The notes beneath the pieces are model-generated. The model saw only the letters and a program-made list of their open reading frames with translations. It was not told the DNA's origin and did no database searches. Positions 30,114-44,966 of a DNA stretch of 64,000 bases are shown here, in pieces (position 1 is the stretch's first letter; each line of letters starts with the position of its first letter). A program made the position numbers and the translations under genes. Source of the stretch: Bdellovibrionales bacterium (GTDB taxonomy: Bacteria > Bdellovibrionota > Bdellovibrionia > Bdellovibrionales > JAGQZY01); NCBI GenBank assembly GCA_964230645.1, contig CAXRHT010000001.1:384001-448000 (forward strand). Direction: 5' to 3'.

Positions 30114-31208
30114 ATGAAATCCATTCTTGCTATCTTAACTTTTATTTTTAGCCACAGCTTAATGGCTGACCCGCTGCTACCACAGTCACCCGATGCGGAA
30201 ACATTAAAACAAATGGCACTTCATAATCAGGAGATGGCAAAATTTGAGCCTGTCACTTCAGAATTTGACCGTAATAAAGATGTACGGCCCTTTGCTGAGT
30301 ATCACGACACGGGTTACATATTTTTTAACGACGATGATTACCGTGGTTACGCCCGAGAAATCAAAGAAACCATCGCTCGTAAAATTCCATCAGATGTTAC
30401 TTTAGTGGTTTATTCGACTTCTTCTAATAAAAGTTACCTCGGTCAGCTGAAAAGCAAATACACCCAATTTATAGATCCGGCTCGCTTAGTGATCTTGCAG
30501 ATTCCTCGTAGTGGGTCCAATAATTTTTGGACAAGGGATAATCTTCCCCTACCCGTTTGGACCAACGACGACTTCACTCTGGTTGATGCTCGTTACTATT
30601 ACAACTTTGAGCCCGATGCTTTCCTAACGAATCTTTTCGCCTCCCTTGCAAGTAAGCACGATTACTTTTTTGAAGGTGGAAACTTTACCGCCAACGCTCG
30701 TGGAGAGTGTATTGTGGTCAACAGAAAGCGTTCTTATCCAGGAGGCATTTCTGATACCGCCGCCATCCCTGATGCTGTTTTTAGAAATCAATACGGCTGC
30801 AATAGACTCATTCGTTTCAAACACCTTAAAGGTATTGGTCACTCCGATGAGGTGGTTAAGTTCATGACTGATGACATTATTGTGACTGATACCCACGAGT
30901 ATGTGGCCGAACTTGAAGCTGCTGGCTATGAAGTTCATATGCTTCCTGAGCCTGATCGTCGCTTTGAAACTTATGTAAACTCTTTACAGGTCAACGACGT
31001 TCTTTTTGTTCCCGTGTTTGGAGAAGCTGGCGACAGCAAAGCCATTGAGGTCTACGAAAGCCTTAACCTAGGTCTTGAAATCGTCCCTATCAACACCAGA
31101 AACCTAGCCACCCGAGGACAGGGCGGAATTCACTGCATAACCATGAATTACCCTCCAGCCCCACTAGCTCAAATCGCAAGAAGTGTTGGCGGAACTCTCA
31201 TCCAATAG
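30114..31208 (+). CDS. Exported agmatine/peptidylarginine deiminase family protein
   Basis: WTRD, EGGN, GHSD, YVN and GGIHCIT catalytic motifs; N-terminal signal peptide. Confidence 0.85.
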   Translation: MKSILAILTFIFSHSLMADPLLPQSPDAETLKQMALHNQEMAKFEPVTSEFDRNKDVRPFAEYHDTGYIFFNDDDYRGYAREIKETIARKIPSDVTLVVYSTSSNKSYLGQLKSKYTQFIDPARLVILQIPRSGSNNFWTRDNLPLPVWTNDDFTLVDARYYYNFEPDAFLTNLFASLASKHDYFFEGGNFTANARGECIVVNRKRSYPGGISDTAAIPDAVFRNQYGCNRLIRFKHLKGIGHSDEVVKFMTDDIIVTDTHEYVAELEAAGYEVHMLPEPDRRFETYVNSLQVNDVLFVPVFGEAGDSKAIEVYESLNLGLEIVPINTRNLATRGQGGIHCITMNYPPAPLAQIARSVGGTLIQ

Positions 31209-31228: not shown

Positions 31229-31258
31229 AAAAAAGGTCCCAGAAAGGACCTTTTTTTT
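31229..31258. terminator. Bidirectional rho-independent terminator
   Basis: A6-GGTCC-loop-GGACC-T8 between convergent genes. Confidence 0.8.
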
Positions 31259-31285: not shown

Positions 31286-32113
31286 TTAGAGGGGCCAGGA
31301 GAAGTTGATGAAGTATGGCACTTTGACCCAGAAGAAATGGGTGTCATCAATTTGGAATTCTTCACCACTTTCCGTTCGTGATAGTGAATGAAAAGATGTG
31401 GAGCTGCCTCCATCCAAAGCCACTGCTTCTGTGGCTTTTAGCTCTGTAAGAAGAAAGCGTCTGATTTCGTTGAAACTAGCAAGCCTTGAGTAAAGAATCA
31501 GAACATCACCGCTTTGATCAATCGCCAGGATCATTCTCTCATCAAGTCGGTTTGGACTGTGCACCCCAGAAATGTAATCGGACCTTTGAATCAATCGAGG
31601 GGTAGCCTGGACAGCGACTCGGTGATTTTCTGATTCTTCATAACGCGAAGCCGGTGTGATATCACAAGAATTCTTACCACAATGAAAAACTCCACCTCTA
31701 TTGGAAAGCGGTCGACCAAGTGAAGTCGAGCCATCTTTTAAAAACAAGGTGGGCTCGGATGCTTTATTGAAATACGAGGCATTGATGCGAAGATTCCACG
31801 CTGGCATGTCGGTTCCCTTAAACTCCCCTCTTTTAGAAGTCTCTATGGAGAAGTCTACCGCTTGCGGGGAGAAGTGAGCCACCTGCACGTTTAGCCTTCT
31901 TTCTAGAGGAAGGCCGTCGCATTCTGTTTTTAGGTGACTAGAGATTTTATAGTCGACGATCTGCATGGAACTCACTTCGTCAATAAGCTCCTCATCTTCT
32001 ATAAGCACTTGGTAAGGAAAGCAGCTACTAGCCTGGGAATTTAACGAAAAAAAACAAACAAGTAGAGAAAGAGAAAATAAGGGTAAAATTGGCATACTCA
32101 GTGTCTTATTCAT
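31286..32113 (-). CDS. Phosphodiester glycosidase family protein (NAGPA/DUF2233-like), exported
   Basis: INASYF, QATPRLI, R.ILAI, AVALDGGSST motifs; signal peptide. Confidence 0.8.
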   Translation of the reverse strand: MNKTLSMPILPLFSLSLLVCFFSLNSQASSCFPYQVLIEDEELIDEVSSMQIVDYKISSHLKTECDGLPLERRLNVQVAHFSPQAVDFSIETSKRGEFKGTDMPAWNLRINASYFNKASEPTLFLKDGSTSLGRPLSNRGGVFHCGKNSCDITPASRYEESENHRVAVQATPRLIQRSDYISGVHSPNRLDERMILAIDQSGDVLILYSRLASFNEIRRFLLTELKATEAVALDGGSSTSFHSLSRTESGEEFQIDDTHFFWVKVPYFINFSWPL

Positions 32114-32137
32114 CTCTTCCTCCTCACTTATTAGCCC

Positions 32138-33697
32138 TTATTGAATAAAAGGTCTTACCTGTTTTAAATAAACCTGTCGTTGGCCAGAATCGAGGTCATC
32201 CACCTTGAATTCAATATCTAAGGGAACGGTTTGACCTTGATCGGTGGAAAAAATCGGCTGAAAGTGCTCGCTTGCTTTTAGACTTTGAAAAACAAGGTCT
32301 TTCACTTCCCCTTCATACATCACCTTATGGGGGTTGGCTGCTGGAAGAATGGTTTCCATATCATCGGCCACATTGGACTGACTGAGATAGTGGATTTGGT
32401 AGAGCTCTTTGTTTAAGGGCTCATTGGCATCGTAAAGCACCAAAATCTTCTCTGACTGTACACCGGGCTCTGGGTTGGCGACACTATGCTCATCCCCTCT
32501 CTGGGCCTCGATATAAACTCCAGCTCCACTGAATTGGTCATTCTCAGCTAAGTTCGCCGTTACTAAAACTCCATCCACTTCCTCGTTGCTGTAGGATGGA
32601 TTGACTTGAACACCCATATAGATTTCGTCGTGAGCAATTCCGAAAGCTTCTCTCTCTTCGTAAGCTCTCAGGTTCCAAACAGAGCCCCAGACTTCTTTTA
32701 ATGCCTCTTTTGCCTCTTTGAGTTTTTTCTTTTGTGAGCGCTCCTCGCCATCTTTCATAGGCTTATAAGACTTGGAGGAATAAAGGCCAGCACCATTGAA
32801 GTTAGGAAGATCTTCTGCGTTGGTAGAACTTCTAAACTTCATTTTCATTTTTTCGCCACTGGGGGAAACAAAATCATCTAATTTTGCGACCAAAAGGCTT
32901 AAAAAATCCTCGTCAATAACAGTCACGTCGGATTCAATAAGTTCCCTGATAACTTTTAATTTCTCATCACGATATTTGGTCGCCGAAACACGTCTCATTA
33001 GGGGGTCACGTAAAAGACCTTTGATGGCATCCTTTAAAATGGGGTTATCCTCAACAAACTGAGCGTAATAGAAAAATGGAATGGCCATTGAGGGGCGAAC
33101 CACTTCTCGCTCAGGGGTGTTCAAAGCGTAAGCGAGTTCAGCGTAGTTAGCCGCTTTCGATCCGACTTTGCTAAAATCCTGCCAACTGAGATCAGGCATC
33201 AAAAAAACTTGCTGTGTGTTGAGATCACTCACTAGCTCAATTTTCTCAGACCCAGCCACCTTCTGTTGATAAAAACTTTTCGCCTGGTTCTCATCGGAGG
33301 CGGAAACCGTGATGTTTCCATCGGCAAGGGCTACTAAATGGATGAAGTCTCCATCCCCAAAGCCTTCAAATATTGGATTCGACATTCCACCTTCAAGGGC
33401 TGAGATATCAACGTTGGGTATTTTTCTAGCGCGCGCTTTTATTTGCACGTGGGACAAAAGGCCCTGATTCATCAAAGTAATGGCACCAGCCACCACTGAC
33501 ATATTAAAAGGCATCTCTGCAAAAACAGGGATAGATATAGGAGAAAGACTTTCGTACTTATCGGACTCCTCAAGTATATCCTCGGCACTTAAGAAAACCA
33601 ATTGCCCATGGGCCTCTCCTGGATTCATAACTCTGGCTTGGCCAAAGACATTGAAAGAAATAAAAAGGGCTAAAACCCCTAAAGCTATTTTGTTCAT
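32138..33697 (-). CDS. Exported dikinase-like protein: N-terminal phospho-His swivel domain + PEP synthase/PPDK-type ATP-grasp domain
   Basis: Signal peptide; GAIT...GLLSHVQIKARARKIPN (His swivel); VGSKAANY, RSSTNAEDLPNFNGAGLYSS, VWGSVW, DIEFK, LKQVRP. Confidence 0.85.
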   Translation of the reverse strand: MNKIALGVLALFISFNVFGQARVMNPGEAHGQLVFLSAEDILEESDKYESLSPISIPVFAEMPFNMSVVAGAITLMNQGLLSHVQIKARARKIPNVDISALEGGMSNPIFEGFGDGDFIHLVALADGNITVSASDENQAKSFYQQKVAGSEKIELVSDLNTQQVFLMPDLSWQDFSKVGSKAANYAELAYALNTPEREVVRPSMAIPFFYYAQFVEDNPILKDAIKGLLRDPLMRRVSATKYRDEKLKVIRELIESDVTVIDEDFLSLLVAKLDDFVSPSGEKMKMKFRSSTNAEDLPNFNGAGLYSSKSYKPMKDGEERSQKKKLKEAKEALKEVWGSVWNLRAYEEREAFGIAHDEIYMGVQVNPSYSNEEVDGVLVTANLAENDQFSGAGVYIEAQRGDEHSVANPEPGVQSEKILVLYDANEPLNKELYQIHYLSQSNVADDMETILPAANPHKVMYEGEVKDLVFQSLKASEHFQPIFSTDQGQTVPLDIEFKVDDLDSGQRQVYLKQVRPFIQ

Positions 33698-33698
33698 A

Positions 33699-35072
33699 TT
33701 AATTTCCTTTGTTCAAAATGACTGAAACTGAATTTAATGAGGAAGACTTCAACACATCATCACGAAACTGCTGCACTCCAGACTGACCACTGGCTTGGGA
33801 CCAGGCCGTCACTGTACTTAAAAACACATCATCCATTGTCATTGCAGCAACATCGATCACATCGACTAAAGTTGATGAAAGCGCCTCACTGTCACCAGAG
33901 CTCAGTTCGTCGTAAAAATAAGCCCAGTTATCCTCAATGAGAAAACCTTCGATAAATATAAGATTGAGTAAAGTTTGCGCCAATTCAGAGGACTCCACTT
34001 TCTCAAACTTTATAACCTCTTTATTAATAAAGTCTGTGGCACTAACGATTGTCGCTAAGGCCTTGGCTTTCTTGGTCCAGGCGACAGCACTTGTACTTAA
34101 AGCTTTTTTACTTTCCACAGCTGTTTGCGATAGCAGAAAAAGAGTTTTAACACTAACTCCTTGCTCCTCTACTGTTTGCGCCGCACCTACTAGGTCGGTG
34201 AGCCCTGAGGCATTGGCCAATTCTTTAATTTTTCCGGCATCGGCCTGAAAGTACTCGCTTAACATGCGGTGAATTTCCTGCAAATAGGTGTTGCCATTAG
34301 CCGCATACCAGGGGTTTTCTTCCAGATAGATTTCAATCATTGGCAAGACATTTTCTGATAAGTTGTTGTGAATGGCATTACGGATTTTGTAGAGGCCTCT
34401 TACCCGAGAATCAGAAGCCCCCCAGCGATTCACAAAATAATCGTAGGCCACTTTGATCATATCACGGCTTTTTTCAAGAGAAGACGAGTTGGTAATGGGA
34501 CTTTGTTTTGCCAATAGATATACAGGCAAAAATTGGAAGGAATCCTCAACAAAACTCAAATAATAACTGAAATAGTAATTGGCATATTCTTGCTCAAACT
34601 CTGAACCAGCGATCCCTCTTGTATTGAATCCACGAGTGATTCCTGAGTCTGGAAATTTAGATATGTAATATTTCTCAAGCACCCAGTGTTTTACAATTTC
34701 AACAGATTCACTCATCCTGGAGGCTCCCACTGACATAAGAGCCTCATGATCTAAAGAAAATGATTGAGCACCGTCAAAAATCGTCTCGCTCATAAGGTTG
34801 TAGTAATTTGTAGTAAATAGGTTACCGGTATAAAAGCCATGCTCTGTAGCAAGAGTTTCAGCCACCTCGTTTCTATAGGCCGCCTGAAAAAGAAAGTCAC
34901 CAGAAGGAGCGCCTGATAAAACTTTCGAACGCCCTCTTGTCCCTTGTAGATAATTGTAGCCAAAGGGGCCTTTCCTTGTATTTTCAATTTCACTGAAAAT
35001 TGATTCTGGACTTGCAGCTACAGTCGATGTGGCGAGCATTAGAATAAAAGTAAGTACAATTCGATACATCAT
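33699..35072 (-). CDS. Hypothetical exported, probably largely alpha-helical protein
   Basis: 457-aa ORF, signal peptide, ends 1 bp from the dikinase start. Confidence 0.8.
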   Translation of the reverse strand: MMYRIVLTFILMLATSTVAASPESIFSEIENTRKGPFGYNYLQGTRGRSKVLSGAPSGDFLFQAAYRNEVAETLATEHGFYTGNLFTTNYYNLMSETIFDGAQSFSLDHEALMSVGASRMSESVEIVKHWVLEKYYISKFPDSGITRGFNTRGIAGSEFEQEYANYYFSYYLSFVEDSFQFLPVYLLAKQSPITNSSSLEKSRDMIKVAYDYFVNRWGASDSRVRGLYKIRNAIHNNLSENVLPMIEIYLEENPWYAANGNTYLQEIHRMLSEYFQADAGKIKELANASGLTDLVGAAQTVEEQGVSVKTLFLLSQTAVESKKALSTSAVAWTKKAKALATIVSATDFINKEVIKFEKVESSELAQTLLNLIFIEGFLIEDNWAYFYDELSSGDSEALSSTLVDVIDVAAMTMDDVFLSTVTAWSQASGQSGVQQFRDDVLKSSSLNSVSVILNKGN

Positions 35073-35078
35073 ATTTCC

Positions 35079-36917
35079 TTAGTCAATAAGTTCTAGGACT
35101 TCTTGTTTTTCTTGTTCAAAGGCGTCTTTCCCACAGTCCTCACTGTTGGAGGTGGGCGCACAGCCTTTCACACGTCCCATCAAACGAACAAGGCGCATGC
35201 CCTTTGTTGAGTTTCCGCTCGATTGCATCCCAGAGGTCGTAATGGGACTATAAAATTGCACTTTGTCTCTTTCGTAAGTTTGCTCATAAAGCGGGAAAAC
35301 CCCTTGAGCCACAAATGAGGTTTTTACTCTTTTTTCTTTAAGATCCATATAGGAAGGAAAAGAAAGGCTTGGGTCAACGAATTCAAACTGCCCTGAGACA
35401 GAGTTAAATTCAAACACACGATTATCGCCATAGAGTTCTTGATAAAATTCGTATTTATCATCCATTCCAATATTAAGATCCTTTCCATCTCTTTTTGAGA
35501 GGCCACTGGAACCTTGAGTGTCGTAACTGATCATATACTCAACACCAATCACTTCGAGAGTTCCGTCACCATCGATGTCGTAAAGATCAAAATCCTCGGA
35601 ATCGTTTCCAAATTGGAAAACCTGTTTCATTTTGTCGTTTTCAACGGGCATCAAATGCCTCATTTCCCAAACGTGCCCGAGAGCCAACCGCAAGCAGCCG
35701 CTTGAAACTCCTCCCCGTTTTACTGCCCAGAAATGCTCATGTTCAGAGGGAGCATTGAGAAGCTCTTTAATTTCTCTATTAAAGTTTGATCCATAAAAGC
35801 GAACGGCTGGATTATGAAAACCATTGCCGATTCCTTCGAAATCCATCTTGGGAGCCCAGCCATAGTAAGGCTCTTTTCTAATATGATCGACTTCATGATA
35901 GGAGCGATCTAAGAAAGGCCATAAACCCGGAGTTGCAAAACGAGGAATACGATTGCCAAATTTATCTTTGGTAGTACCCTTATAACTCCCTGTCGGATAA
36001 ACCGCAGAAAACTCAGGATAAGTAAGATAACACTGAGAACCCTCGCAGTGGATCGGCTCTCTCCACTCTCCATTAGCCCCTAAAGTTTTAAACTTAAATT
36101 TTTGTTCAGTCAGTGTGGTGAAAAGGCTTAGAGCTTGAGCTTGAAACTCCGCTTCGGCTTCAGAGAGAGCTAGATTAGCCAAAGCTTGCAAATCTTCGAC
36201 AAGCTCGTCTGTCGGCTCCTCGGTATAATTTATTCGCCCCCAAACGAGAGTGTTGATGGCCTGAATAGTCTCCTCACTTCGACGAGTAAGGACTGATTCA
36301 ACAGAGTCTCCGTCGAGAATTTGTGAGAGTGTCTTTTTCCAGCGTGTGAACTCAGCATTGAGATCAAGATTGACAAAGAAAACACGCTCGGTATTAAGTT
36401 GTTTAACGAGTTTTAAGCTCTCTTGATAGAGCTCTTTGTCGTTCAAATTGCCTTGTCTATAGGATTGAGTCAGAGTTTTTATTTGATAAACAGGAGAATC
36501 AATCACGCTTTGAAAATGACTCAGTTGCGGTAGAAGTGAAGCATCTTCAGGATTGATATCCAGGGCAGGACGTTGGCCGTCTTGAGAGGTGGTCATTTCC
36601 TGGTAAAAAGAAGATCTCGCTTCAAGATCAAAAAGATAATCCATAATTGTTTTTTCATCCAGGAGAACACTCACTCGCGTCTGGTTTCCACGTGAAGTCC
36701 GAATGTGAATTCTCTCGGGAGACTGACTTCTTGGAGCAAAGCCTGTGTAAAAACTGGGATAGTAGTGGCTGATTCTTCCTTCTCCACCTTTCCAGCTTGT
36801 ACCCCAGATAAGCAACGAACTGTTGTACTGCTCTAAAGGAGTTTGGCTTTGAGCCCATTGGACGTTAGATAAAATTAGGACAAATAAAAATACCTGTTTT
36901 AGGTAAAACATAGACAC
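35079..36917 (-). CDS. Hypothetical exported protein with possible divergent L,D-transpeptidase (YkuD)-like motif
   Basis: 612-aa ORF, signal peptide; GNGFH...VSSGCLRL resembles H...SHGCIR; function call is weak. Confidence 0.6.
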   Translation of the reverse strand: MSMFYLKQVFLFVLILSNVQWAQSQTPLEQYNSSLLIWGTSWKGGEGRISHYYPSFYTGFAPRSQSPERIHIRTSRGNQTRVSVLLDEKTIMDYLFDLEARSSFYQEMTTSQDGQRPALDINPEDASLLPQLSHFQSVIDSPVYQIKTLTQSYRQGNLNDKELYQESLKLVKQLNTERVFFVNLDLNAEFTRWKKTLSQILDGDSVESVLTRRSEETIQAINTLVWGRINYTEEPTDELVEDLQALANLALSEAEAEFQAQALSLFTTLTEQKFKFKTLGANGEWREPIHCEGSQCYLTYPEFSAVYPTGSYKGTTKDKFGNRIPRFATPGLWPFLDRSYHEVDHIRKEPYYGWAPKMDFEGIGNGFHNPAVRFYGSNFNREIKELLNAPSEHEHFWAVKRGGVSSGCLRLALGHVWEMRHLMPVENDKMKQVFQFGNDSEDFDLYDIDGDGTLEVIGVEYMISYDTQGSSGLSKRDGKDLNIGMDDKYEFYQELYGDNRVFEFNSVSGQFEFVDPSLSFPSYMDLKEKRVKTSFVAQGVFPLYEQTYERDKVQFYSPITTSGMQSSGNSTKGMRLVRLMGRVKGCAPTSNSEDCGKDAFEQEKQEVLELID

Positions 36918-37103
36918 CTCTTTTAGTATTAGGCGTCATATATCTTGTCGACGAGTCACATGATATGAATAATCATTAAAGAGTATATTTTTCATGTTCG
37001 TTGGGCCTGGTTTTTCTTTTTTATTTCGAAGACTTAGAAAAATACCGTCGTTCTTTTTTTTAAGGATGGATTAAAGTCTAAAAGACTTTTTCCTTAAACG
37101 ATT

Positions 37104-37898
37104 CTACTCAGCTTTTAGAAAGGCCGGCAGAGCTCCAGAAAAATCATTCTTTTCTAAGTAAAGGGACTCTTCAAGACTCTTCTCATATTTTGAAAACGAA
37201 CGGCGATTAAGACCAAAGGTTCGAATCAAATCGGCCATCCAGCAGGGCACTTGCCTACCAGCTTTGAGCTCTAAAATCACAGAAGAGAAGGACTCACCAA
37301 AAACAGAGGTTACGTCGTAGTGACACATCTTTTTAGGATCCGGCTGAACTGTGAAGCCAGGTTCTTTTTGGTAGCAAAGGTCTCTATCAAAAGTCACACG
37401 GGCGTACTCATCCACTCTGGAGAAAAAGGCAAGACGATAATATTGAGTCAGAATTTTAGGTTCGACGTTGAGGATACTAAAGCTATGAAAAAACTTTTGA
37501 AAATTTCCTTCATCAGAGACCTTCAAAAGATCATAGTTTTGCCTTCCGGCAAGGATATCCGCCCATTCTTGAAAGCTTGTTTTCGAACGAAGCTTATCGA
37601 CCATATCACCATGTTTACATTTTTTTTCAAAGAAATAGGGAGGCTGACTGCCATCGCCGTACGAGCGTACTCGTAAATTAAAGCGGTTAAATCTTTTTAC
37701 CTTTTTGTTTTTAAGAAGATCGAAATTGAAGGTATCCAGGTAAAGACTATTAACCTGGTAATAACCATCGGGGGATTTTTTTGAAAAAGGATCTTGTTCG
37801 CAGTAGACTTTGATGTAGTCACAAATGGGTTGAACCATTTCAATGGGGATTGAGTATTTAAGCTCTCGGCGGACAAGACGAGTCTCTCGATCAAACAA
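37104..37898 (-). CDS. VTC (CYTH-superfamily) polyphosphate polymerase domain protein
   Basis: RRELKY, VNSLYLDT, RFNLRVRSY, FFEKKCK, YYRLAF, RVTFDRDL, ILELK, FSKY; GAGGTG RBS. Confidence 0.9.
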   Translation of the reverse strand: MFDRETRLVRRELKYSIPIEMVQPICDYIKVYCEQDPFSKKSPDGYYQVNSLYLDTFNFDLLKNKKVKRFNRFNLRVRSYGDGSQPPYFFEKKCKHGDMVDKLRSKTSFQEWADILAGRQNYDLLKVSDEGNFQKFFHSFSILNVEPKILTQYYRLAFFSRVDEYARVTFDRDLCYQKEPGFTVQPDPKKMCHYDVTSVFGESFSSVILELKAGRQVPCWMADLIRTFGLNRRSFSKYEKSLEESLYLEKNDFSGALPAFLKAE

Positions 37899-37980
37899 TT
37901 TGTCACCTCTTGGACAGGAAACTAACTGAATCTTGACATAAACCTCAAGCTGTTCCCTTGGTATTGAATATTTTTCAGCT

Positions 37981-38007
37981 AAAAAAAAGCCTCCTTACGG
38001 AGGCTTT
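37981..38007 (-). terminator. Rho-independent terminator downstream of the kinase-like gene
   Basis: AAAGCCTCC-ttac-GGAGGCTTT hairpin with an A-run (U-tail on the minus strand). Confidence 0.8.
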
Positions 38008-38019
38008 ACAATTCAGAAA

Positions 38020-39549
38020 TTAAAGAGCGGAGCAATCAAGAGACTCCATCTGAACGCCATCGCGTGGAAAGTTATCCACGTCGTTAAGGTCAAATTGGAT
38101 CTCTGGACACTGGGCTCTTAATTTTTCGGCCACATTGTGAGTTCTCTCTACAAAACTCTCCAATGTCTTCTCATTAAGGTTTAAGTTCGTGGCCATCCAC
38201 TGATAAATGGGTCCTGCGGCTTGCAGGTCACGATCGAGCTCCATGAGCTTTTCATAGGTTTTTGTCGCCATATGATGAATATCCTCAAGCCAATCCGCTC
38301 TTTCTGGAAAATTGGCGTATTTACCAATCGTCGCTCCAGGGTATCCGCTGTAATCTCTTAGGCCAGCATCGTTATCGTTGAGGAAGGTTCTTTGAATAAG
38401 GACAGGTTCCGAACCAGGCTTAATGTCAGCCACCCAATCTTCCTCGGGTAAAGTAATTCCTGAGGCCGCCATTTCCTCACGACTCATCTCTTCGAATTCG
38501 TCTCTCTTCTCGCGCTTGTCTTTCACTTTGTCGTCGATCGTTTCGTAATTCCAGTACCAACGATAATCGATGTTTCCAACTCGGTCTTGCTGACCAAAAA
38601 TAGAATCAAGAACGATCATTTCTGACATTTCTCTCATCCAAAAAAGCATCTGTAAGGCGGGAACATCCCCTAGGGAATTAGCCATCTCACGAGAGGAAGC
38701 CTTTGCTTTTGCCACACCTTCTTCAACAGCTTCTAAAAGTGGTTTATCACTTCTTAGTGCGATAAAGGGGGCTACGTCATCACGCAACTGCTTGTGCTGA
38801 CCTGTTCCCCAGGAAGCTGTGCGAGTGGAGTTAATTTCAGCTCCGTAGCGCTCTCCTGGCCCCTTGATAAGAACACCATAGATTTTTGCGCCATCGGCGG
38901 TTACAAGCTCTTCTGTGGGTGAGTAATCCTCTGGATTTTGCCCAACGATATCAAGCCATCTCCAACCATTGTGAACCTTTTGACCTGAGCGAGTGTTTGC
39001 TAACCCCACAGGAACCACGTTTTCATAAATATACTGACGGTCTATCTCTCTATAGACAGAGACTGGGACTTTGATCTTCGTATCCAGAAGTCTAGAAACA
39101 TGATAGTAAGCTAACGATGATGGCGAATACGTTCCGCTGGTGCCACCGCCAAGGCTTGAGCTTCCCTGGTTCATAGAAACTTTAAACTTAGCGAGGTTAT
39201 CGACATCCTCCCCCTCGTCTTTTTGCCCGCAGTACTCTGAGCTCATGTACTCCTCTTTACTCATACCACTTTCACTGATTTCACGGACCATTGTGGCAGG
39301 GCTTGTGCTCCAAGTCTTTGGGCAAACCGCAAAATTCGGTGCGTAGATATTAGCGCTACAGAATTCGATTTCGTCTTCTAAATCGTCTTTATCGTAATCT
39401 CCCCCTGGAATTTGAGGCAAAGAACGGCAAACCTCATTCACTCCATTGGGAGAAACATAGGTCATTTCAAAACCGTGTGCTGAAGCTTCTATGGCACCTA
39501 ATAGACTGATTGTTAAAACTGATATTATAAATTTCATCTTATCATCCAT
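38020..39549 (-). CDS. Exported atypical protein-kinase-fold protein (Fam20/Four-jointed/CotH-like)
   Basis: AKFK (beta3 Lys), AYYHVSRLLD...VPVSVYR, LDSIFGQQDRVGN (catalytic DR), LNDNDAG (metal-binding Asp); signal peptide; paired Cys. Confidence 0.7.
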   Translation of the reverse strand: MDDKMKFIISVLTISLLGAIEASAHGFEMTYVSPNGVNEVCRSLPQIPGGDYDKDDLEDEIEFCSANIYAPNFAVCPKTWSTSPATMVREISESGMSKEEYMSSEYCGQKDEGEDVDNLAKFKVSMNQGSSSLGGGTSGTYSPSSLAYYHVSRLLDTKIKVPVSVYREIDRQYIYENVVPVGLANTRSGQKVHNGWRWLDIVGQNPEDYSPTEELVTADGAKIYGVLIKGPGERYGAEINSTRTASWGTGQHKQLRDDVAPFIALRSDKPLLEAVEEGVAKAKASSREMANSLGDVPALQMLFWMREMSEMIVLDSIFGQQDRVGNIDYRWYWNYETIDDKVKDKREKRDEFEEMSREEMAASGITLPEEDWVADIKPGSEPVLIQRTFLNDNDAGLRDYSGYPGATIGKYANFPERADWLEDIHHMATKTYEKLMELDRDLQAAGPIYQWMATNLNLNEKTLESFVERTHNVAEKLRAQCPEIQFDLNDVDNFPRDGVQMESLDCSAL

Positions 39550-39563
39550 TTGTTAGTGTGAAA

Positions 39564-40223
39564 TTAGTGGCAGATTTGACTACGCTGCTCGGCGGTTAAC
39601 TGAAACTCAGGAAAAGGATTAAATTCGTCGATCTTCTCAAACTGACGACGTCTTCCCTTAGCACCGAGTGAGTCGTAAATATCAATGGCATCCCAGTTGC
39701 TCTTAGCCTGGTCTTTTGAAATTCCACAAAACTGCATTAAAGCCATTTGAGCTAGAGTGTTTGAAGCATGAACTCCGTAATAGCAATGCAAATAAACAGC
39801 CCCTGCAGATCCATTTATAACATCGTTATAAAGATAGCTCATAAGGTTATAAACCCGACTCCCTCCCCCACCGTCACGGGCTTCACCAATGTAAACATAG
39901 TCAAGGGCATTGGATCCACAGCTAACAGAGGTATCAACATCAATGTAAACCGAATAAATTCTGGAGAAGTCATCAGCACACATCTGGTTGGTCATTGAAG
40001 AGCTTAGTAGCGCTCGGCGCCTGTCAGAGCCACCAATATAGAATGCGCCTTTTAAAATCGCTTTGGGACGTGTGTCCCCGGAATTGTAAGAGGACTGACT
40101 AATCTCCGTACTGCTTCCTGGATTATTGAAAATATTCTGAAAATGACTGATTTTGTCTCGAAGGCTTTGGCTGAATGCCAATTGAGAAGATAACAGAATT
40201 GCGAAAAAGATAATTCGGTTCAT
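39564..40223 (-). CDS. Exported PTP/DSP-fold protein with variant P-loop (HCYYGVHAS)
   Basis: VYLHCxxGxx motif followed by a helix and GISKDQA, as in dual-specificity phosphatases; the Arg of CX5R is Ala; signal peptide. Confidence 0.65.
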   Translation of the reverse strand: MNRIIFFAILLSSQLAFSQSLRDKISHFQNIFNNPGSSTEISQSSYNSGDTRPKAILKGAFYIGGSDRRRALLSSSMTNQMCADDFSRIYSVYIDVDTSVSCGSNALDYVYIGEARDGGGGSRVYNLMSYLYNDVINGSAGAVYLHCYYGVHASNTLAQMALMQFCGISKDQAKSNWDAIDIYDSLGAKGRRRQFEKIDEFNPFPEFQLTAEQRSQICH

Positions 40224-40347
40224 AAGGGGGGCTCCTTTTAATAGCTTAAAAGGTCCTTATAACACTCGACTGTGGCACGCCTAGCGAAAGTGATTTTGTT
40301 AAAATCTTTCTATGTACTTATGAACTAATTTCACCGAAAAAAAACTA

Positions 40348-41493
40348 CTAAAGGTCGTGCCTTCGGTAGATTATCCTACGAGATGAATCGAGGAAGTGTG
40401 AACTAGGAAACTGACTACATCGTTGACACTTACTTGTATTGCCTGAAGGCATATCAATCACCTCAGGGAACTGACTGTCATCAAGAATTTCGTAATTGTC
40501 AGAGGTCCTTTGCACCAGTGACCAGTTACCAAGGCTATCAAATTCAACAACCAAAAAGGCCTTCGGGCTTCTAGGAAGGCTTGAATTCCTCGAAATATGA
40601 TAGCGAGATCCACTTCCTAAGAGGGGAACAGACACATACTCCGTATGATGATCTCGTCTCCCAGGGTAGTAAACGTGGGAATGTCCACTAAAAAAGACAT
40701 CCACTTTGTGTTTTTCAAAAAGGTCTTCCACCTTTTTTAAAAAGCTCGAATTACCTCGAGACACATATTCCGTTTCTTTTTTAAAAGCAAAAGGCAATAG
40801 AGGCACATGACCATAGATAAATCGCAACTTAGCGTCTTTTTCTTTTGCAAACACTTGTTCCATCCAATTCAAAGTGCTGTCAGACCAGGCTCTCACTGCT
40901 GTATCATCAAGACTGATAAAAAGAGCGGACCCAATGCGGAAAGCGTATTGGAAGGGAAAGTTCTGTTCTACACCTTCAACCATCTTCATATTGGAGGCCA
41001 CAGAAAGAGGGTCTTCTCTTTCCCAAGACTCTTTATAGTGTTTTCGTTCTGTTTGAAAACCTATATGGGCGTCATGATTTCCCGGTGAAGGAAAAACAGG
41101 AATTTCACTTTTAAGCATGGGCCGTGTCACATTGGAGTGAAAAGAATCCCACATTCCTCGGTAGTCCAAACCGCTTTTTTGACCAGCCACCATATCGCCA
41201 GTAGATATTACGAAATCTATTTCCGAATCCCTATCTGTGATGTAGCTAACAGCTCTTTTAACATCTTGCCCATAGGACTTTGAGCCGTAAGATCCGTTCA
41301 TATCGGAAATAATTCCAAAACGATAGTTTTTAACAATGGGATCCGGTTTGTCACCAGGCTCATTGGCATCACCTGGGTCTTGACCATAACCTTGATCACT
41401 TTGATCAGAGCTATTTTGGTCGGATTGATCCGCAGGCTTAGAGTGACTGCAGTGGACGAGACTAAAAAATAATAAAAGAATAAAGATACGCAC
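40348..41493 (-). CDS. Calcineurin-like metallophosphoesterase, probable lipoprotein
   Basis: SDMN, TGDMV, PGNHD, GHVP, SGHSH; LVHC lipobox-like sequence; D/Q/S-rich linker. Confidence 0.88.
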   Translation of the reverse strand: MRIFILLLFFSLVHCSHSKPADQSDQNSSDQSDQGYGQDPGDANEPGDKPDPIVKNYRFGIISDMNGSYGSKSYGQDVKRAVSYITDRDSEIDFVISTGDMVAGQKSGLDYRGMWDSFHSNVTRPMLKSEIPVFPSPGNHDAHIGFQTERKHYKESWEREDPLSVASNMKMVEGVEQNFPFQYAFRIGSALFISLDDTAVRAWSDSTLNWMEQVFAKEKDAKLRFIYGHVPLLPFAFKKETEYVSRGNSSFLKKVEDLFEKHKVDVFFSGHSHVYYPGRRDHHTEYVSVPLLGSGSRYHISRNSSLPRSPKAFLVVEFDSLGNWSLVQRTSDNYEILDDSQFPEVIDMPSGNTSKCQRCSQFPSSHFLDSSRRIIYRRHDL

Positions 41494-41588
41494 GAAGTAA
41501 GTATCGGGATGTTCGTTCTTTTAATTAAGTCCAGTTCAGAACCTAGGTCGAGCCCTTGACACTTCTTTAACCAAAGTCTGTCTCATTC

Positions 41589-42752
41589 TCAAACTTTAAG
41601 GACTTCAGTAAGATAATTTATATTCTCTTTGTTGAGCTCTCCTTGGAGAAAAAGGATTTTCAAATAATTAGCGTGGATATTGAGTAGAGTCTCTATTTTT
41701 TTAAAACGCAACTTAATGTATTTCACTTCGTCATCAATACTTGTTTCAAGGTTTGAAAGAGAGCTCGAAAACCTTTGCGCATTCTTACTTTTCATAGGGA
41801 TCATTTTGTAGATTTCAAATTTTTCGATAAGCCCTAGGGTTTCAGCTTTCACCTGTGTCATCTCATCTTGTTTCTGCCATTTTTCCTGACGTATTTGAAT
41901 TTGATCTTGTAGATAATCGGTTTCTGCTTGTTTAAGTTCGGTGCTATCGGAGAGAAAAGGAACCCTTAAGGACAATTGCAGCTTATGATCTTCCAAACGG
42001 CGGATATCTCTTTCTCGACTCATTTGTACAAACTTGATAACCTGCCAAGATTCAGACTTTTTCTTTTTGAATTCCATCTCAGCCAATTCTTTTTTTTCGT
42101 TCTCAATTTTAAAATCAATTTCTTTGGCAGCTTTTAAAGATTGCTTGAGTCTCTCAGGATCTGCCAATTTTAAATCTTTTAAGCTTTCAAGAATTTCCCT
42201 GACCTTGTCATCTTTTTTAATATTATCAAAAACGCTTTTATATTGAGTTTCCATCTCAGCAAAGAAACCAAGATTTTCAATAAATCCATTAAGATCCACT
42301 TCACTATTTTGGGAAATGGCAGAGATTCTCTTTCGAGCTTTTTCAAAAAGCTTTTGATTTTGCTTTAAAACTTCATGATTTTTTAAAACACCCCACAGAA
42401 TTAAAAGCTTATTGTAGGCATTCAAACGATTTAAATTTTCCTGGTTACCTTGGGTCAACTTTAAGATTTTATTGTGTTTCTCAGTCAGTCGTACTTCGTT
42501 GGCTAGACCGAAAATTGGCTTTAAACCAAACCGGACCGATTGGTCACTGAAGACACCATCCTCATCGGTCTCAATTCTCACCTCTGTTTCATCAAGAAAT
42601 GATAAACCTGGATTCCATGCCGATTTGGGAGATACTCTTTTGTTTTTTATCTCGGATTCCACCCACTGAACTATTGGGTCCTCTTTTGCCTCGCAAGTTA
42701 AGGCGGACTGCAGGAAGACTAAGAATAGAATCAAGGCAGAAAGACTTCTCAC
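41589..42752 (-). CDS. Putative TolC-like outer membrane efflux protein
   Basis: Signal peptide; short alternating beta segments (VRFGLKP, LQLSLRVPF) between long helical stretches; overlaps the HlyD stop. Confidence 0.5.
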   Translation of the reverse strand: MRSLSALILFLVFLQSALTCEAKEDPIVQWVESEIKNKRVSPKSAWNPGLSFLDETEVRIETDEDGVFSDQSVRFGLKPIFGLANEVRLTEKHNKILKLTQGNQENLNRLNAYNKLLILWGVLKNHEVLKQNQKLFEKARKRISAISQNSEVDLNGFIENLGFFAEMETQYKSVFDNIKKDDKVREILESLKDLKLADPERLKQSLKAAKEIDFKIENEKKELAEMEFKKKKSESWQVIKFVQMSRERDIRRLEDHKLQLSLRVPFLSDSTELKQAETDYLQDQIQIRQEKWQKQDEMTQVKAETLGLIEKFEIYKMIPMKSKNAQRFSSSLSNLETSIDDEVKYIKLRFKKIETLLNIHANYLKILFLQGELNKENINYLTEVLKV

Positions 42753-43618
42753 TGATTGCCCTCAAAGGAAACCATAACCTTTTCTCCCAGATAGAAATCA
42801 TTGCCTTTTGGGAGAGAAACTTTAATTTCTCGGCCGTATATTCTCATACTCGGATCTTTTTGAAATCTTTCTGGAAGCTCAGTCAGCATCGAACCGATGG
42901 AAACGATTTCTCCTTTCACCTGATAGTCTCTAGAGATCGATTTAATGTTTGAAGCTCGGTTCTGTGTTAATGATGCGAAACTAAAGGATTCAGGGATATA
43001 GGAACGCACGAGAGTCGGTTTTAAATGAAAGATCTCTAGAAGCGGCTGAAAAGGCGGAATGGTTTCTGAGGCACTCACCTGTAATTCGCCCGCAAGGCCA
43101 TCAATCGGTGAAACCACTTCCAGACTTTTTTCCTCGGAAGCCAAGGCTTTTTTATTTTCCACAAAAGTAAGAAATCGCATCTCTAGAGGACTTAGACTTT
43201 GGTTCTTTTTTCTCTTTTCTAAGAATACGACCCACTTGTCTTTATCCCACCTTCGGCCGGAGTGGATATTGAGCTCCATCAGTGCCGTTTGCAGTTCTGT
43301 CTCATTGGCATATTGGCGAGAGGCCAAATCCTCGCGCTTCAAACGAAAAAGAGGATCTCCTTTGGAGACCAGTTGTCCTGACTCGACCAATATTTCATCG
43401 ACCACCACAGAGTCTTTAAAATTGATGGTAAAACCTCTGGCCTCGGTCACTCCTGGAATTCGATTTCCTTGGCTCAAATCATAATGAAGTATCAGATAAA
43501 TCAAACCGGAGGCCAAAACTAGTCCCACTAGCAGGAAATAGTTGGCGACAATAAAATCCCAGAAAGGATTGTTGCGACTTGTTTTGAAATTGATTTTTTT
43601 GTTACTTTCCTCGTTCAC
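42749..43618 (-). CDS. HlyD/membrane-fusion periplasmic adaptor
   Basis: N-terminal TM; lipoyl half-motifs EILVESGQLVSKGDPLFRL and VVSPIDG...PLLEI flanking a helical hairpin. Confidence 0.85.
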   Translation of the reverse strand: MNEESNKKINFKTSRNNPFWDFIVANYFLLVGLVLASGLIYLILHYDLSQGNRIPGVTEARGFTINFKDSVVVDEILVESGQLVSKGDPLFRLKREDLASRQYANETELQTALMELNIHSGRRWDKDKWVVFLEKRKKNQSLSPLEMRFLTFVENKKALASEEKSLEVVSPIDGLAGELQVSASETIPPFQPLLEIFHLKPTLVRSYIPESFSFASLTQNRASNIKSISRDYQVKGEIVSIGSMLTELPERFQKDPSMRIYGREIKVSLPKGNDFYLGEKVMVSFEGNQ

Positions 43619-43628
43619 TTGCCAACCC

Positions 43629-44309
43629 TTAAATATCCGTACTACTTTGCTGCACCATCAACTGCAGTCCCTCTAAATTTTCAATGGCTTGAAGTTCCTG
43701 GATCAATTGTGCCTGCTGCTTTTGATTTTTAAGTTTTACCTGATAGGAGTAATCCACTCTCTGCCCCTGGGCGAGATCCCTCAACGTTACTAGAGCGAAT
43801 TTTCGGCAGTTTTTTGAGAGAATCCCCGCAACACTCTCTTGGTTGTTACCTTTAGAAGGAATATTGAACCTTAACAATCCATCAAACTGTGTGCTTTGAG
43901 AAAGAGGCGTTTTTGATAGGATAAAGATCACAGCGCAAAAACAAAGAACGCCTGAGATGGTTATTGAGTAGGCGAAAACTCCACAAGAAATACCAAGAGC
44001 CAAACTGGCAAAAAGGAAAAACATGTCTTTAGGGTCTTTTAAATTTGAGCGGAAACGAAGAATGGAAAAGGCTCCCATCATACCGATACCACGAGCCAGA
44101 CTTCCATCAATGGCCATCATTGCGATCGCCGAAACGATCGGACTTAGAACCAAGGACTGAATAAAGTTTTTTGAATAACTCAAACCCTCGTAGGTAAACA
44201 CGTAGGTTAAAGCCAGAAGACTTCCAACAATGAATGCAAAACAGACACCCTGTAGAGACGTCCAGAAGCTTGTGTTCATCGTCGCATAATTGAATGCATC
44301 AATACCCAT
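43629..44309 (-). CDS. DUF4956 domain membrane protein
   Basis: SYSKNF, SLARGIGMMGAFSILRFRS.LKDPKD..FLF...ALGISCG; C-terminal soluble ACT-like tail. Confidence 0.9.
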   Translation of the reverse strand: MGIDAFNYATMNTSFWTSLQGVCFAFIVGSLLALTYVFTYEGLSYSKNFIQSLVLSPIVSAIAMMAIDGSLARGIGMMGAFSILRFRSNLKDPKDMFFLFASLALGISCGVFAYSITISGVLCFCAVIFILSKTPLSQSTQFDGLLRFNIPSKGNNQESVAGILSKNCRKFALVTLRDLAQGQRVDYSYQVKLKNQKQQAQLIQELQAIENLEGLQLMVQQSSTDI

Positions 44310-44576: not shown

Positions 44577-44603
44577 AAAAAAAAAGGTCCCTAAGGGACC
44601 TTT
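44577..44603 (-). terminator. Rho-independent terminator
   Basis: A-run then AGGTCCC-taa-GGGACCT, downstream of 44631-44966. Confidence 0.75.
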
Positions 44604-44630: not shown

Positions 44631-44966
44631 TTAAGCGTTACTACACTTGTCAGCGCAGTAAGCCCCACCGAAATCCTTTTTGCAAGCGTCAATACAAACA
44701 GGCATGGCGTCGGCTTTACACCCGGGGTTTTCTTTGACGAAATCATCCCAGTAGTTATCCATACAATAGGCTCCGCCGTAATCTTCCATACAAGCGTCAA
44801 CAAGCACATTTAAACCCTCAACCTTGCCATCGCAGTAGGATCCTGAAACAGAACCGTCTCCAACACACTGGTAGGTTTTTCCATCAACTGTTACTGATAT
44901 TTCTTTGGCCTGAGCTGAAAGGCCCATCGCCAGCGCAAAAAACGCTACTAAAACAATTCTAAACAT
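44631..44966 (-). CDS. Small secreted Cys-rich protein with an internal repeat
   Basis: Signal peptide ending AQA; DACMEDYGGAYC and DACKKDFGGAYC; GGGGG RBS. Confidence 0.8.
   Translation of the reverse strand: MFRIVLVAFFALAMGLSAQAKEISVTVDGKTYQCVGDGSVSGSYCDGKVEGLNVLVDACMEDYGGAYCMDNYWDDFVKENPGCKADAMPVCIDACKKDFGGAYCADKCSNA

Follow-up and report, generated by a model that had tools for sequence, protein, structure and literature searches.

A run of 11 consecutive minus-strand genes (31286-44309) in a 64-kb window of a Bdellovibrionales genome is a merger of three modules, termed A, B, and C, that also exist apart. The window is the whole stretch of DNA analyzed, G000:C1:384001-448000, and belongs to the source genome G000 (3.78 Mb, 99.6% complete), which named homologues assign to Bdellovibrionota. 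Module A comprises a VTC-domain protein, a DUF4956 membrane protein, an HlyD-type adaptor, and a TolC-like protein; module B contains a split dikinase and a YkuD-fold protein; and module C contains a metallophosphoesterase, a PTP-fold protein, and a Fam20-like kinase. Module A is most readily interpreted as an interchangeable supply unit, of which there are at least two, the other being a TLC ATP/ADP carrier. We tentatively propose, at somewhat less than even confidence, that module A makes polyphosphate (polyP) and exports it as a phosphoryl source with which the kinase and the dikinase phosphorylate the envelope; for the dikinase, the target is most likely the wall.

Three separable modules form one gene run

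All 11 open reading frames (ORFs) lie where a first-pass annotation, made from the sequence alone, had placed them, but the single fixed system that it described gives way to three separable modules. Gaps of 95, 124, 121, and 186 bp separate the modules, and the remaining gaps measure -4 to 24 bp. The terminator that had been called at 37981-38007 was confirmed as an intrinsic-terminator-like hairpin on the minus strand, situated between the kinase and VTC genes, with its stem at 38007-37986 followed by a T-run (z -4.1; 0 of 200 shuffles were equally stable). A second terminator-like hairpin (31229-31256, minus strand; region z -2.8) closes the run and faces a convergent deiminase-like gene. 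A promoter scan returned 18 sites versus 27 in shuffles, and no promoter is claimed. The GC content of the 11 genes resembles that of the remainder of the window, and every one of them is present as a single copy in G000. Six of the 11 proteins have Pfam matches above the curated cut-off (DUF4956, HlyD_3, Metallophos, VTC, PPDK_N, and NAGPA), while the TolC-like, PTP-fold, and kinase proteins of the window have no Pfam match and carry labels drawn from weaker evidence.

Export signals were judged by a hydrophobicity heuristic (KD10) rather than by SignalP. By this measure, the earlier assignment of signal peptides to all proteins except VTC, DUF4956, and HlyD is supported, with an N-terminal hydrophobic stretch of KD10 2.6-3.2 in the eight proteins concerned and none in VTC (1.2). 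The homologues behave similarly, as the heuristic was passed by 7 of 9 for the dikinase, 9 of 10 for the 457-aa protein, 10 of 12 for the 612-aa protein, and 6 of 6 for the kinase, compared with 2 of 15 for VTC.

The modules were followed in a phylum sample of 301 genomes, of which 58 have VTC, 10 the split dikinase, and 43 the kinase. All three modules occur in G000, G004, and G005, each time in a different order (in G005, the locus extends across a contig break), and further gene orders are found in G019/G024, G240, G299, L134, and L141. VTC is present in 9 of the 10 split-dikinase genomes, against a background of 58/301, and lies within 15 kb in six. It is also present in 28 of the 43 kinase genomes and within about 3 kb in 16, 12 of which belong to one genus. 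Modules A and C adjoin in at least 12 near-complete genomes of genus g25. In family f1, VTC and the gene for the 612-aa protein of module B occur in the same 4 of 24 genomes, a count of linked genes among kin that are not independent, for which Fisher tests overstate the association and carry no weight here, and the kinase occurs in those four VTC genomes plus three more. DUF4956 and VTC are nearly always found together in Bdellovibrionota. The expected co-occurrence of the exported enzymes with VTC and DUF4956 holds in part: it is seen in many gene orders, and the kinase and dikinase modules often stand without VTC.

A hand tally placed a kinase-type gene within about 15 kb of VTC in 36 of the 58 VTC genomes, namely this kinase in 18, the split dikinase in 4, large kinase-like proteins called from motifs only in 6, and CotH in 8. 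Unannotated, predicted exported proteins of 500-1200 aa lie beside VTC modules (L023:10649-14269, L024:10852-14352, L058:14058-17510, L059:10212-13529, L063:10666-13995, L026:15617-17284, and L276:11287-12807); most of the long ones have atypical-kinase-like motifs (N-x-D...N, HDLG), and those scanned gave no Pfam match. An arylsulfotransferase-like gene (L271:8354-10060) occupies the position between DUF4956 and VTC that usually belongs to CotH.

Module A encodes a Vtc4-type domain and a candidate membrane passage

The VTC gene (37104-37898, minus strand) encodes a cytoplasmic 264-aa protein that consists of the Vtc4-type tunnel domain alone (PF09359, 141 bits), without an SPX domain or transmembrane segment. 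A profile of 44 sequences matched yeast Vtc4 best (E 9e-25), above Vtc2 and Vtc3. The accessible text of 10.1101/2023.01.27.525886 names nine Vtc4 residues for catalysis: K200, R264, R266, K281, Y359, R361, E426, S457, and K458. All nine are kept in the window protein, as K14, R76, R78, K93, Y153, R155, E210, S236, and K237, and they are invariant or nearly so across the 44 sequences. Among them, K237 aligns with Vtc4 K458, by which active Vtc4 is distinguished from Vtc2/Vtc3. The window protein carries a CYTH-like E12-x-K14 where Vtc4 has T-x-K. Close VTC homologues are annotated in Bdellovibrio strains; the searched parts of the B. bacteriovorus proteome supplements contain no 'VTC' or 'DUF4956' row and are uninformative on this point (PMC12546842). 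A genome scan with the single VTC protein as query found nothing.

The DUF4956 protein (43629-44309, minus strand; PF16316, 54 bits, cut-off 30.6) combines an MgtC-like transmembrane region, with a weak MgtC/SapB match (E 7e-4), and a C-terminal domain, and its R85-F86-R87 is invariant in an alignment of 25. It is followed by a short-form HlyD-type periplasmic adaptor (42749-43618, minus strand; HlyD_3, 33 bits) and a predicted exported, weakly TolC/OEP-like protein (41589-42752, minus strand), for which 2 of 21 homologues gave an OEP match (best E 6e-6) and the alignment had no match among PDB sequences. The TolC-like gene keeps a fixed place after HlyD in relatives, in which DUF4956, HlyD, TolC-like, and VTC genes usually form one operon. 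At this locus, the VTC and DUF4956 genes are 5.7 kb apart. No ABC, RND, or MFS pump is encoded among the 11 genes or in the module A operons of relatives. A complex prediction for DUF4956 and VTC scored 0.01 against a mark of 0.32, which is evidence neither way. G000 also encodes PPK1, which serves cytoplasmic polyP, and PPK2 was rejected as a local route from polyP to ATP, with no PPK2 match in G000.

The HlyD of most relatives is about 590 aa long, with about 300 more C-terminal residues than the window protein. In one protein, this extension has a weak resemblance to a phytase-like propeller (E 0.0017), and a search of G000 found only the short form. HlyD fused to such a C-terminal region of about 300 aa, weakly phytase- or propeller-like, is seen at L047:6560-8308 and about 18 similar loci.

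In some metagenome loci, a TLC-family carrier stands beside the kinase without VTC

Metagenome loci of the module C kinase were represented by the best 80 of 358, 30 of which are at least 8 kb long. None of the 80 has VTC; two have a DUF4956-like gene and 14 a TLC-family carrier. The TLC gene is always on the same strand as the kinase and at most two genes away. Its loci fall into 11 of the 63 clusters formed at 90% identity and 5 of the 29 formed at 70%. Of six TLC carriers tested, five passed the PF03219 cut-off. Since the carriers score far below the TIGR00769 cut-off and one matches a solved ADP/ATP carrier (E 9e-5), the solute that they transport is presumed. TLC is found in 61 of the 301 phylum genomes, and in neither G000 nor any sampled genome of its order.

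At L184:22-6661, the kinase, a TLC carrier, a fused dikinase, and a beta-lactamase-like serine hydrolase are encoded on one strand. Judged by sequence, this locus consists of modules C and B with a predicted nucleotide carrier replacing module A. Parts of the same set are also found in L209, L202, and L203. Because the same kinase family adjoins TLC elsewhere, without VTC, module A looks like an interchangeable phosphoryl-supply unit, and this VTC-or-TLC exchange is the best argument for phosphoryl supply by module A.

Module C pairs a Fam20-like kinase with phosphatase-fold proteins

The kinase gene (38020-39549, minus strand) encodes a predicted exported Fam20/PI3K-like atypical kinase of 509 aa, a label based on conserved motifs and an Atlas neighbor. 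Among 27 sequences, K123, D322-R-G-N326, and D392-N-D394 are invariant and K121 nearly so, which fits the ATP-site Lys, the catalytic D-x-x-x-N loop, and the metal-binding Asp of atypical kinases. The nearest named Atlas neighbor is the Fam20C cluster (score 0.92, 166 shared features), while the alignment gave no Pfam or PDB sequence match and the single-sequence model (pLDDT 32) was unusable. The gene had been annotated as a Fam20/CotH-like kinase; the Fam20 part stands on these motifs and the Atlas score, but CotH identity was rejected, with no PF08757 match in G000.

The predicted lipoprotein encoded at 40348-41493 (minus strand) is a calcineurin-like metallophosphoesterase (PF00149, 64 bits) with a lipobox and all five metal-binding motifs kept, including DMNG64, GDMV99, GNHD138, and GHSH270. 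Between it and the kinase lies the gene for a predicted exported cysteine-phosphatase-fold protein of 219 aa (39564-40223, minus strand), which has nine weak PDB matches, all to PTP/DSP proteins (best E 0.018). In all 11 sequences, its P-loop reads HCxxGxH[AS]S and has no Arg where the canonical HCxxGxxR, given in the accessible text of PMC13573052, has one. Because this catalytic Arg is missing, the protein is perhaps no eraser but inactive or atypical. Of the two phosphatases previously cast as erasers, the metallophosphoesterase retains its motifs but the PTP-fold protein lacks its catalytic Arg.

The module C trio travels together, as the best 80 metagenome kinase loci include the phosphoesterase in 47 and the PTP-fold gene in 20. 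Near operons of PTP-fold, kinase, and phosphoesterase genes, divergent DUF4956-like genes are present at L148:3223-3978, L153:10359-11117, L156:3503-5185, and L160:3684-4880, without VTC in the locus.

Module B encodes a split dikinase and a YkuD-fold protein

The two genes upstream of NAGPA in the direction of transcription encode a predicted exported 457-aa protein (33699-35072, minus strand), the putative acceptor-binding half, and a predicted exported 519-aa half (32138-33697, minus strand; PPDK_N, 65 bits) with a phospho-His swivel (H83) followed by an ATP-grasp domain. Together they are one enzyme of glucan-water-dikinase (GWD) order split in two. A single protein of about 1000 aa in other genomes is the fused counterpart (fused forms P0121-P0124; the 457-aa protein has 111 relatives). 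PPDK_N is C-terminal in 30 of 30 long homologues, the PEP-utilizers His domain (PF00391) precedes PPDK_N (PF01326) in 17 of 30 fused relatives, and one fused relative has a weak GWD1_pHisD match (E 0.002). All 10 split forms share an invariant H83, K181, R289, E496, Q513, and R515; the roles given to H83 and the ATP-grasp residues follow work on pyruvate phosphate dikinase (PPDK) and GWD. A conventional PPDK or phosphoenolpyruvate (PEP) synthase was rejected, as the His domain lies ahead of a PPDK_N that closes the protein, without a PEP/pyruvate domain; the protein also scores far under PEP-synthase cut-offs. The 457-aa half matched no carbohydrate-binding module, GWD domain, or PDB entry except a low-complexity helical one.

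The third gene (35079-36917, minus strand) encodes a protein of 612 aa, likewise predicted to be exported, whose YkuD (L,D-transpeptidase) domain is discontinuous and contains H368 and S405-x-G407-C408-x-R410. Its AF2 model, built from 125 sequences, has a pLDDT of 96.4. The top 12 VIA rows for this model are all members of the YkuD superfamily, Bdellovibrio Bd1075 among them, with Z 5.6-7.0 and rmsd 2.5-4.8 over 111-132 residues; these values are below the VIA caution line of Z 8 yet family-consistent. Foldseek returned nothing at E <=0.001, its top rows being noise; it listed 4lpq (prob 0.80, E 0.11), the Atlas agreement was also weak, and alignment to PDB sequences gave nothing meaningful. 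H368, S405, G407, C408, and R410 are present in 125 of 125 sequences; at position 406, 101 sequences have H, 21 have S, and 3 have R. About 470 of the 588 modelled residues are unmatched. By this model, the protein has a YkuD fold with an invariant catalytic His and Cys and a possible activity on peptidoglycan stems. The "two exported unknowns" of the first-pass annotation are thus the N-terminal dikinase half and this YkuD-fold protein.

Of 51 module B loci, many of them on short contigs, 45 have the 457-aa domain, 44 the dikinase, and 21 a class-A-beta-lactamase-like SxxK serine hydrolase. A copy of the hydrolase elsewhere in G000 was sought and rejected, as there is no paralogue; NAGPA stands in its stead. 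Because the constant partners of module B have YkuD and penicillin-binding folds, the acceptor is most likely peptidoglycan or a wall-linked glycan.

Variants of these genes were also observed. A 612-aa-type YkuD-fold gene stands without the dikinase among metal-efflux-like genes at L104:9920-11689, L105:9911-11707, and L122:9914-11734; two tandem 612-aa-type genes, one of them broken, occur at L142:7051-11743; and two tandem fused dikinases with FGE-sulfatase-domain neighbors occur at L046:6300-13786.

NAGPA and flanking genes

The last gene of the run encodes a predicted exported NAGPA/phosphodiester-glycosidase-like protein (31286-32113, minus strand; PF09992, 40 bits). It had been counted as part of the system, but it was rejected as a core member, with 0 of 51 module B loci and 0 of 80 kinase loci containing it, and is a local add-on. 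The convergent gene (30114-31208, plus strand), which shares the hairpin region, encodes a predicted exported Porphyromonas-type peptidyl-arginine-deiminase-like protein; none was seen beside relatives. Upstream of DUF4956, a 111-aa cysteine-rich predicted exported protein (44631-44966, minus strand) has no family match and its own terminator (44583-44603).

A proposed mechanism and its alternatives

In the mechanism that we propose, VTC would polymerize polyP from cytoplasmic ATP. DUF4956 would form the inner-membrane passage, which HlyD and the TolC-like protein would extend outward. The Fam20-like kinase would then phosphorylate envelope proteins or glycans and the metallophosphoesterase would reverse this, while the Arg-less PTP-fold protein more likely binds phosphate than hydrolyses it. 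The split dikinase would relay phosphate through His83 to an acceptor on the 457-aa half, most likely peptidoglycan or a wall-linked glycan. The retention of all nine Vtc4 residues, the presence of PPK1, which already serves cytoplasmic polyP, the recurrence of the modules together in different gene orders, and the kinase-type genes of four families near VTC count in favor. That polyP is exported and used by the exported enzymes is a possibility to which we give a little less than an even chance.

Several observations weigh against this mechanism. No kinase lies nearby in 21 of the 58 VTC genomes (one of the 58 was not fetched, some of the 21 are at contig ends, and one ORF call missed VTC), and 15 of the 43 kinase genomes have no VTC match. 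Ten of these VTC-less kinase genomes (98-100% complete) also gave no DUF4956 match in searches run without a positive control, and no TLC is found in the order of these ten; the kinase can thus exist without either known supply unit. Moreover, 45 of the 51 module B loci (many on short contigs) are without any module A gene, and VTC is missing from four of five further module B genomes. The full ATP-grasp nucleotide site is kept in the dikinase, and the TLC pairing points to ATP as a donor that the kinase accepts, perhaps its native one. At this locus, a terminator separates the VTC gene from DUF4956, and the TolC assignment is weak. In addition, enzymes exported by Sec arrive in the periplasm, a compartment that a TolC-type duct would skip. 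Deletions have been described in S. intermedius: in strains deleted for DUF4956 or CotH, aggregation in one medium fell by over 50% and the Pel level changed in opposite directions, while the accessible text of the same source reports no phenotype for deletion of the VTC gene (PMC12345266).

Among the alternatives, the strongest, although rather unlikely, is that the exported kinase and dikinase use ATP, reaching them through DUF4956, another carrier, or invaded prey, with VTC being accessory or a maker of surface polyP. The 14 TLC-bearing loci and the intact ATP-grasp residues fit this explanation, as do the VTC-less loci L148 and L153, where a DUF4956-like gene adjoins the kinase and phosphatases, and the S. 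intermedius phenotypes of the DUF4956 and CotH deletions but not of VTC. It is opposed by the near-inseparability of DUF4956 and VTC in Bdellovibrionota and by the (near-)invariant catalytic residues over 44 VTC sequences. Predation is undemonstrated for this genus, which also counts against it.

It is quite improbable that the three modules are independent envelope or phosphate cassettes, brought into one island by shared regulation or co-transfer without biochemical coupling. Each module does stand alone in many genomes, and the terminator and the long gaps sit between modules; against this, the modules re-associate in many orders and orientations, and the slot beside VTC is filled by four kinase-type families. 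We consider it more doubtful still that exported polyP is the end product, a surface coat or metal chelator, with the kinase and dikinase priming it on, or anchoring it to, a glycan or the wall rather than using it as donor. The HlyD/TolC-like pair implies delivery past the outer membrane and module A stands alone in several genomes, and the accessible text of PMC13484657 describes a PPK-independent, exopolyphosphatase-resistant extracellular polyP in B. cereus, where its authors found no VTC4 homologue; the exchange with a nucleotide carrier is left unexplained by this explanation. That the bacterial VTC domain is a triphosphatase or another non-polymerase tunnel enzyme is very improbable given K237, the equivalent of Vtc4 K458, and the preference for Vtc4 over Vtc2/Vtc3, even though our literature searches found no assay of a bacterial VTC protein and the E12-x-K14 motif is CYTH-like rather than the T-x-K of Vtc4.

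Comparison with known systems

The closest described arrangement is the cotH-VTC-DUF4956 triad beside Gram-positive pel genes, presented without a mechanism in the accessible texts of 10.1101/768473 and 10.1101/2024.04.20.589940. Like this accessory triad (10.1101/768473; PMC12345266), the locus encodes VTC and DUF4956 together with a secreted atypical kinase. Unlike the triad, it belongs to a Gram-negative host, adds HlyD, a TolC-like protein, phosphatases, a split dikinase, and a YkuD-fold protein, and has a Fam20-like kinase instead of CotH. No pel family matched among the 15 genes scanned, which include the 11 of the locus. Contrary to the authors' report, in the accessible text, of no triad outside pel loci (PMC12345266), CotH-VTC-DUF4956 sets were seen in Bdellovibrionota.

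The locus shares with the yeast VTC complex (Vtc4/Vtc3/Vtc1; PDB 3g3q, 8i6v, and 7ytj) the catalytic tunnel domain with all nine residues, but here SPX and fused transmembrane helices are absent and the membrane partner is the MgtC-like DUF4956, for which no link to Vtc1 was found. Unlike tripartite HlyD/TolC export systems, the run of 11 genes is pump-less.

GWD and phosphoglucan, water dikinase (PWD) have an acceptor domain, a phospho-His swivel, and a C-terminal ATP-grasp domain, with no PEP/pyruvate domain. The window dikinase shares this domain order and likewise lacks the PEP/pyruvate domain, but it is spread over two genes, each with a signal-like N terminus. The kinase resembles Fam20 secretory-pathway kinases in its predicted secretion, its K...DRxxN...DN motifs, and its Atlas neighbor, and differs in being bacterial and without a Pfam or PDB sequence match. 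Similarly, the 612-aa protein shares the core fold and His...S(H/S)GCxR with the YkuD family of L,D-transpeptidases/LD-carboxypeptidases (LdtBs 2mtz, Csd6 4xzz, and Bdellovibrio Bd1075 7o21), whereas large insertions break up its domain, His and Cys lie 40 residues apart, and the window protein has SSGC. No LysM or similar domain was detected in it. The earlier statement that no characterized system has this composition agrees with our literature searches, which found none, subscription papers being mostly outside their coverage. The locus adds the three modules in combination, a YkuD assignment from structure, and the exchange of VTC for TLC inside a single kinase family.

Implications

Candidates for the polymerase, the passage, the writers, and the erasers can be named from this locus, which makes two questions testable now: how secreted bacterial kinases come by a phosphoryl donor outside the cytoplasm, and what gives rise to PPK-independent extracellular polyP, posed as open in the accessible text of PMC13484657. 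Genetics should be feasible because modules A and C adjoin in the genus g25 genomes and Bdellovibrio strains have annotated close homologues of VTC. The secretion of wall-editing enzymes into prey has been reported for Bdellovibrio. An unlikely but wider reading is an extracytoplasmic phosphorylation economy with two interchangeable supplies, either a pump-less VTC-DUF4956-HlyD-TolC polyP extruder or an outward ATP/ADP carrier, whose client, a starch-dikinase-like enzyme with an L,D-transpeptidase-fold partner, would phosphorylate the cell's own or prey peptidoglycan. Peptidoglycan phosphorylation of that kind was not found in our literature searches. A GWD-order dikinase acting on the cell wall, if confirmed, would mean that polymer phosphorylation of the starch type also takes place in bacterial envelopes.

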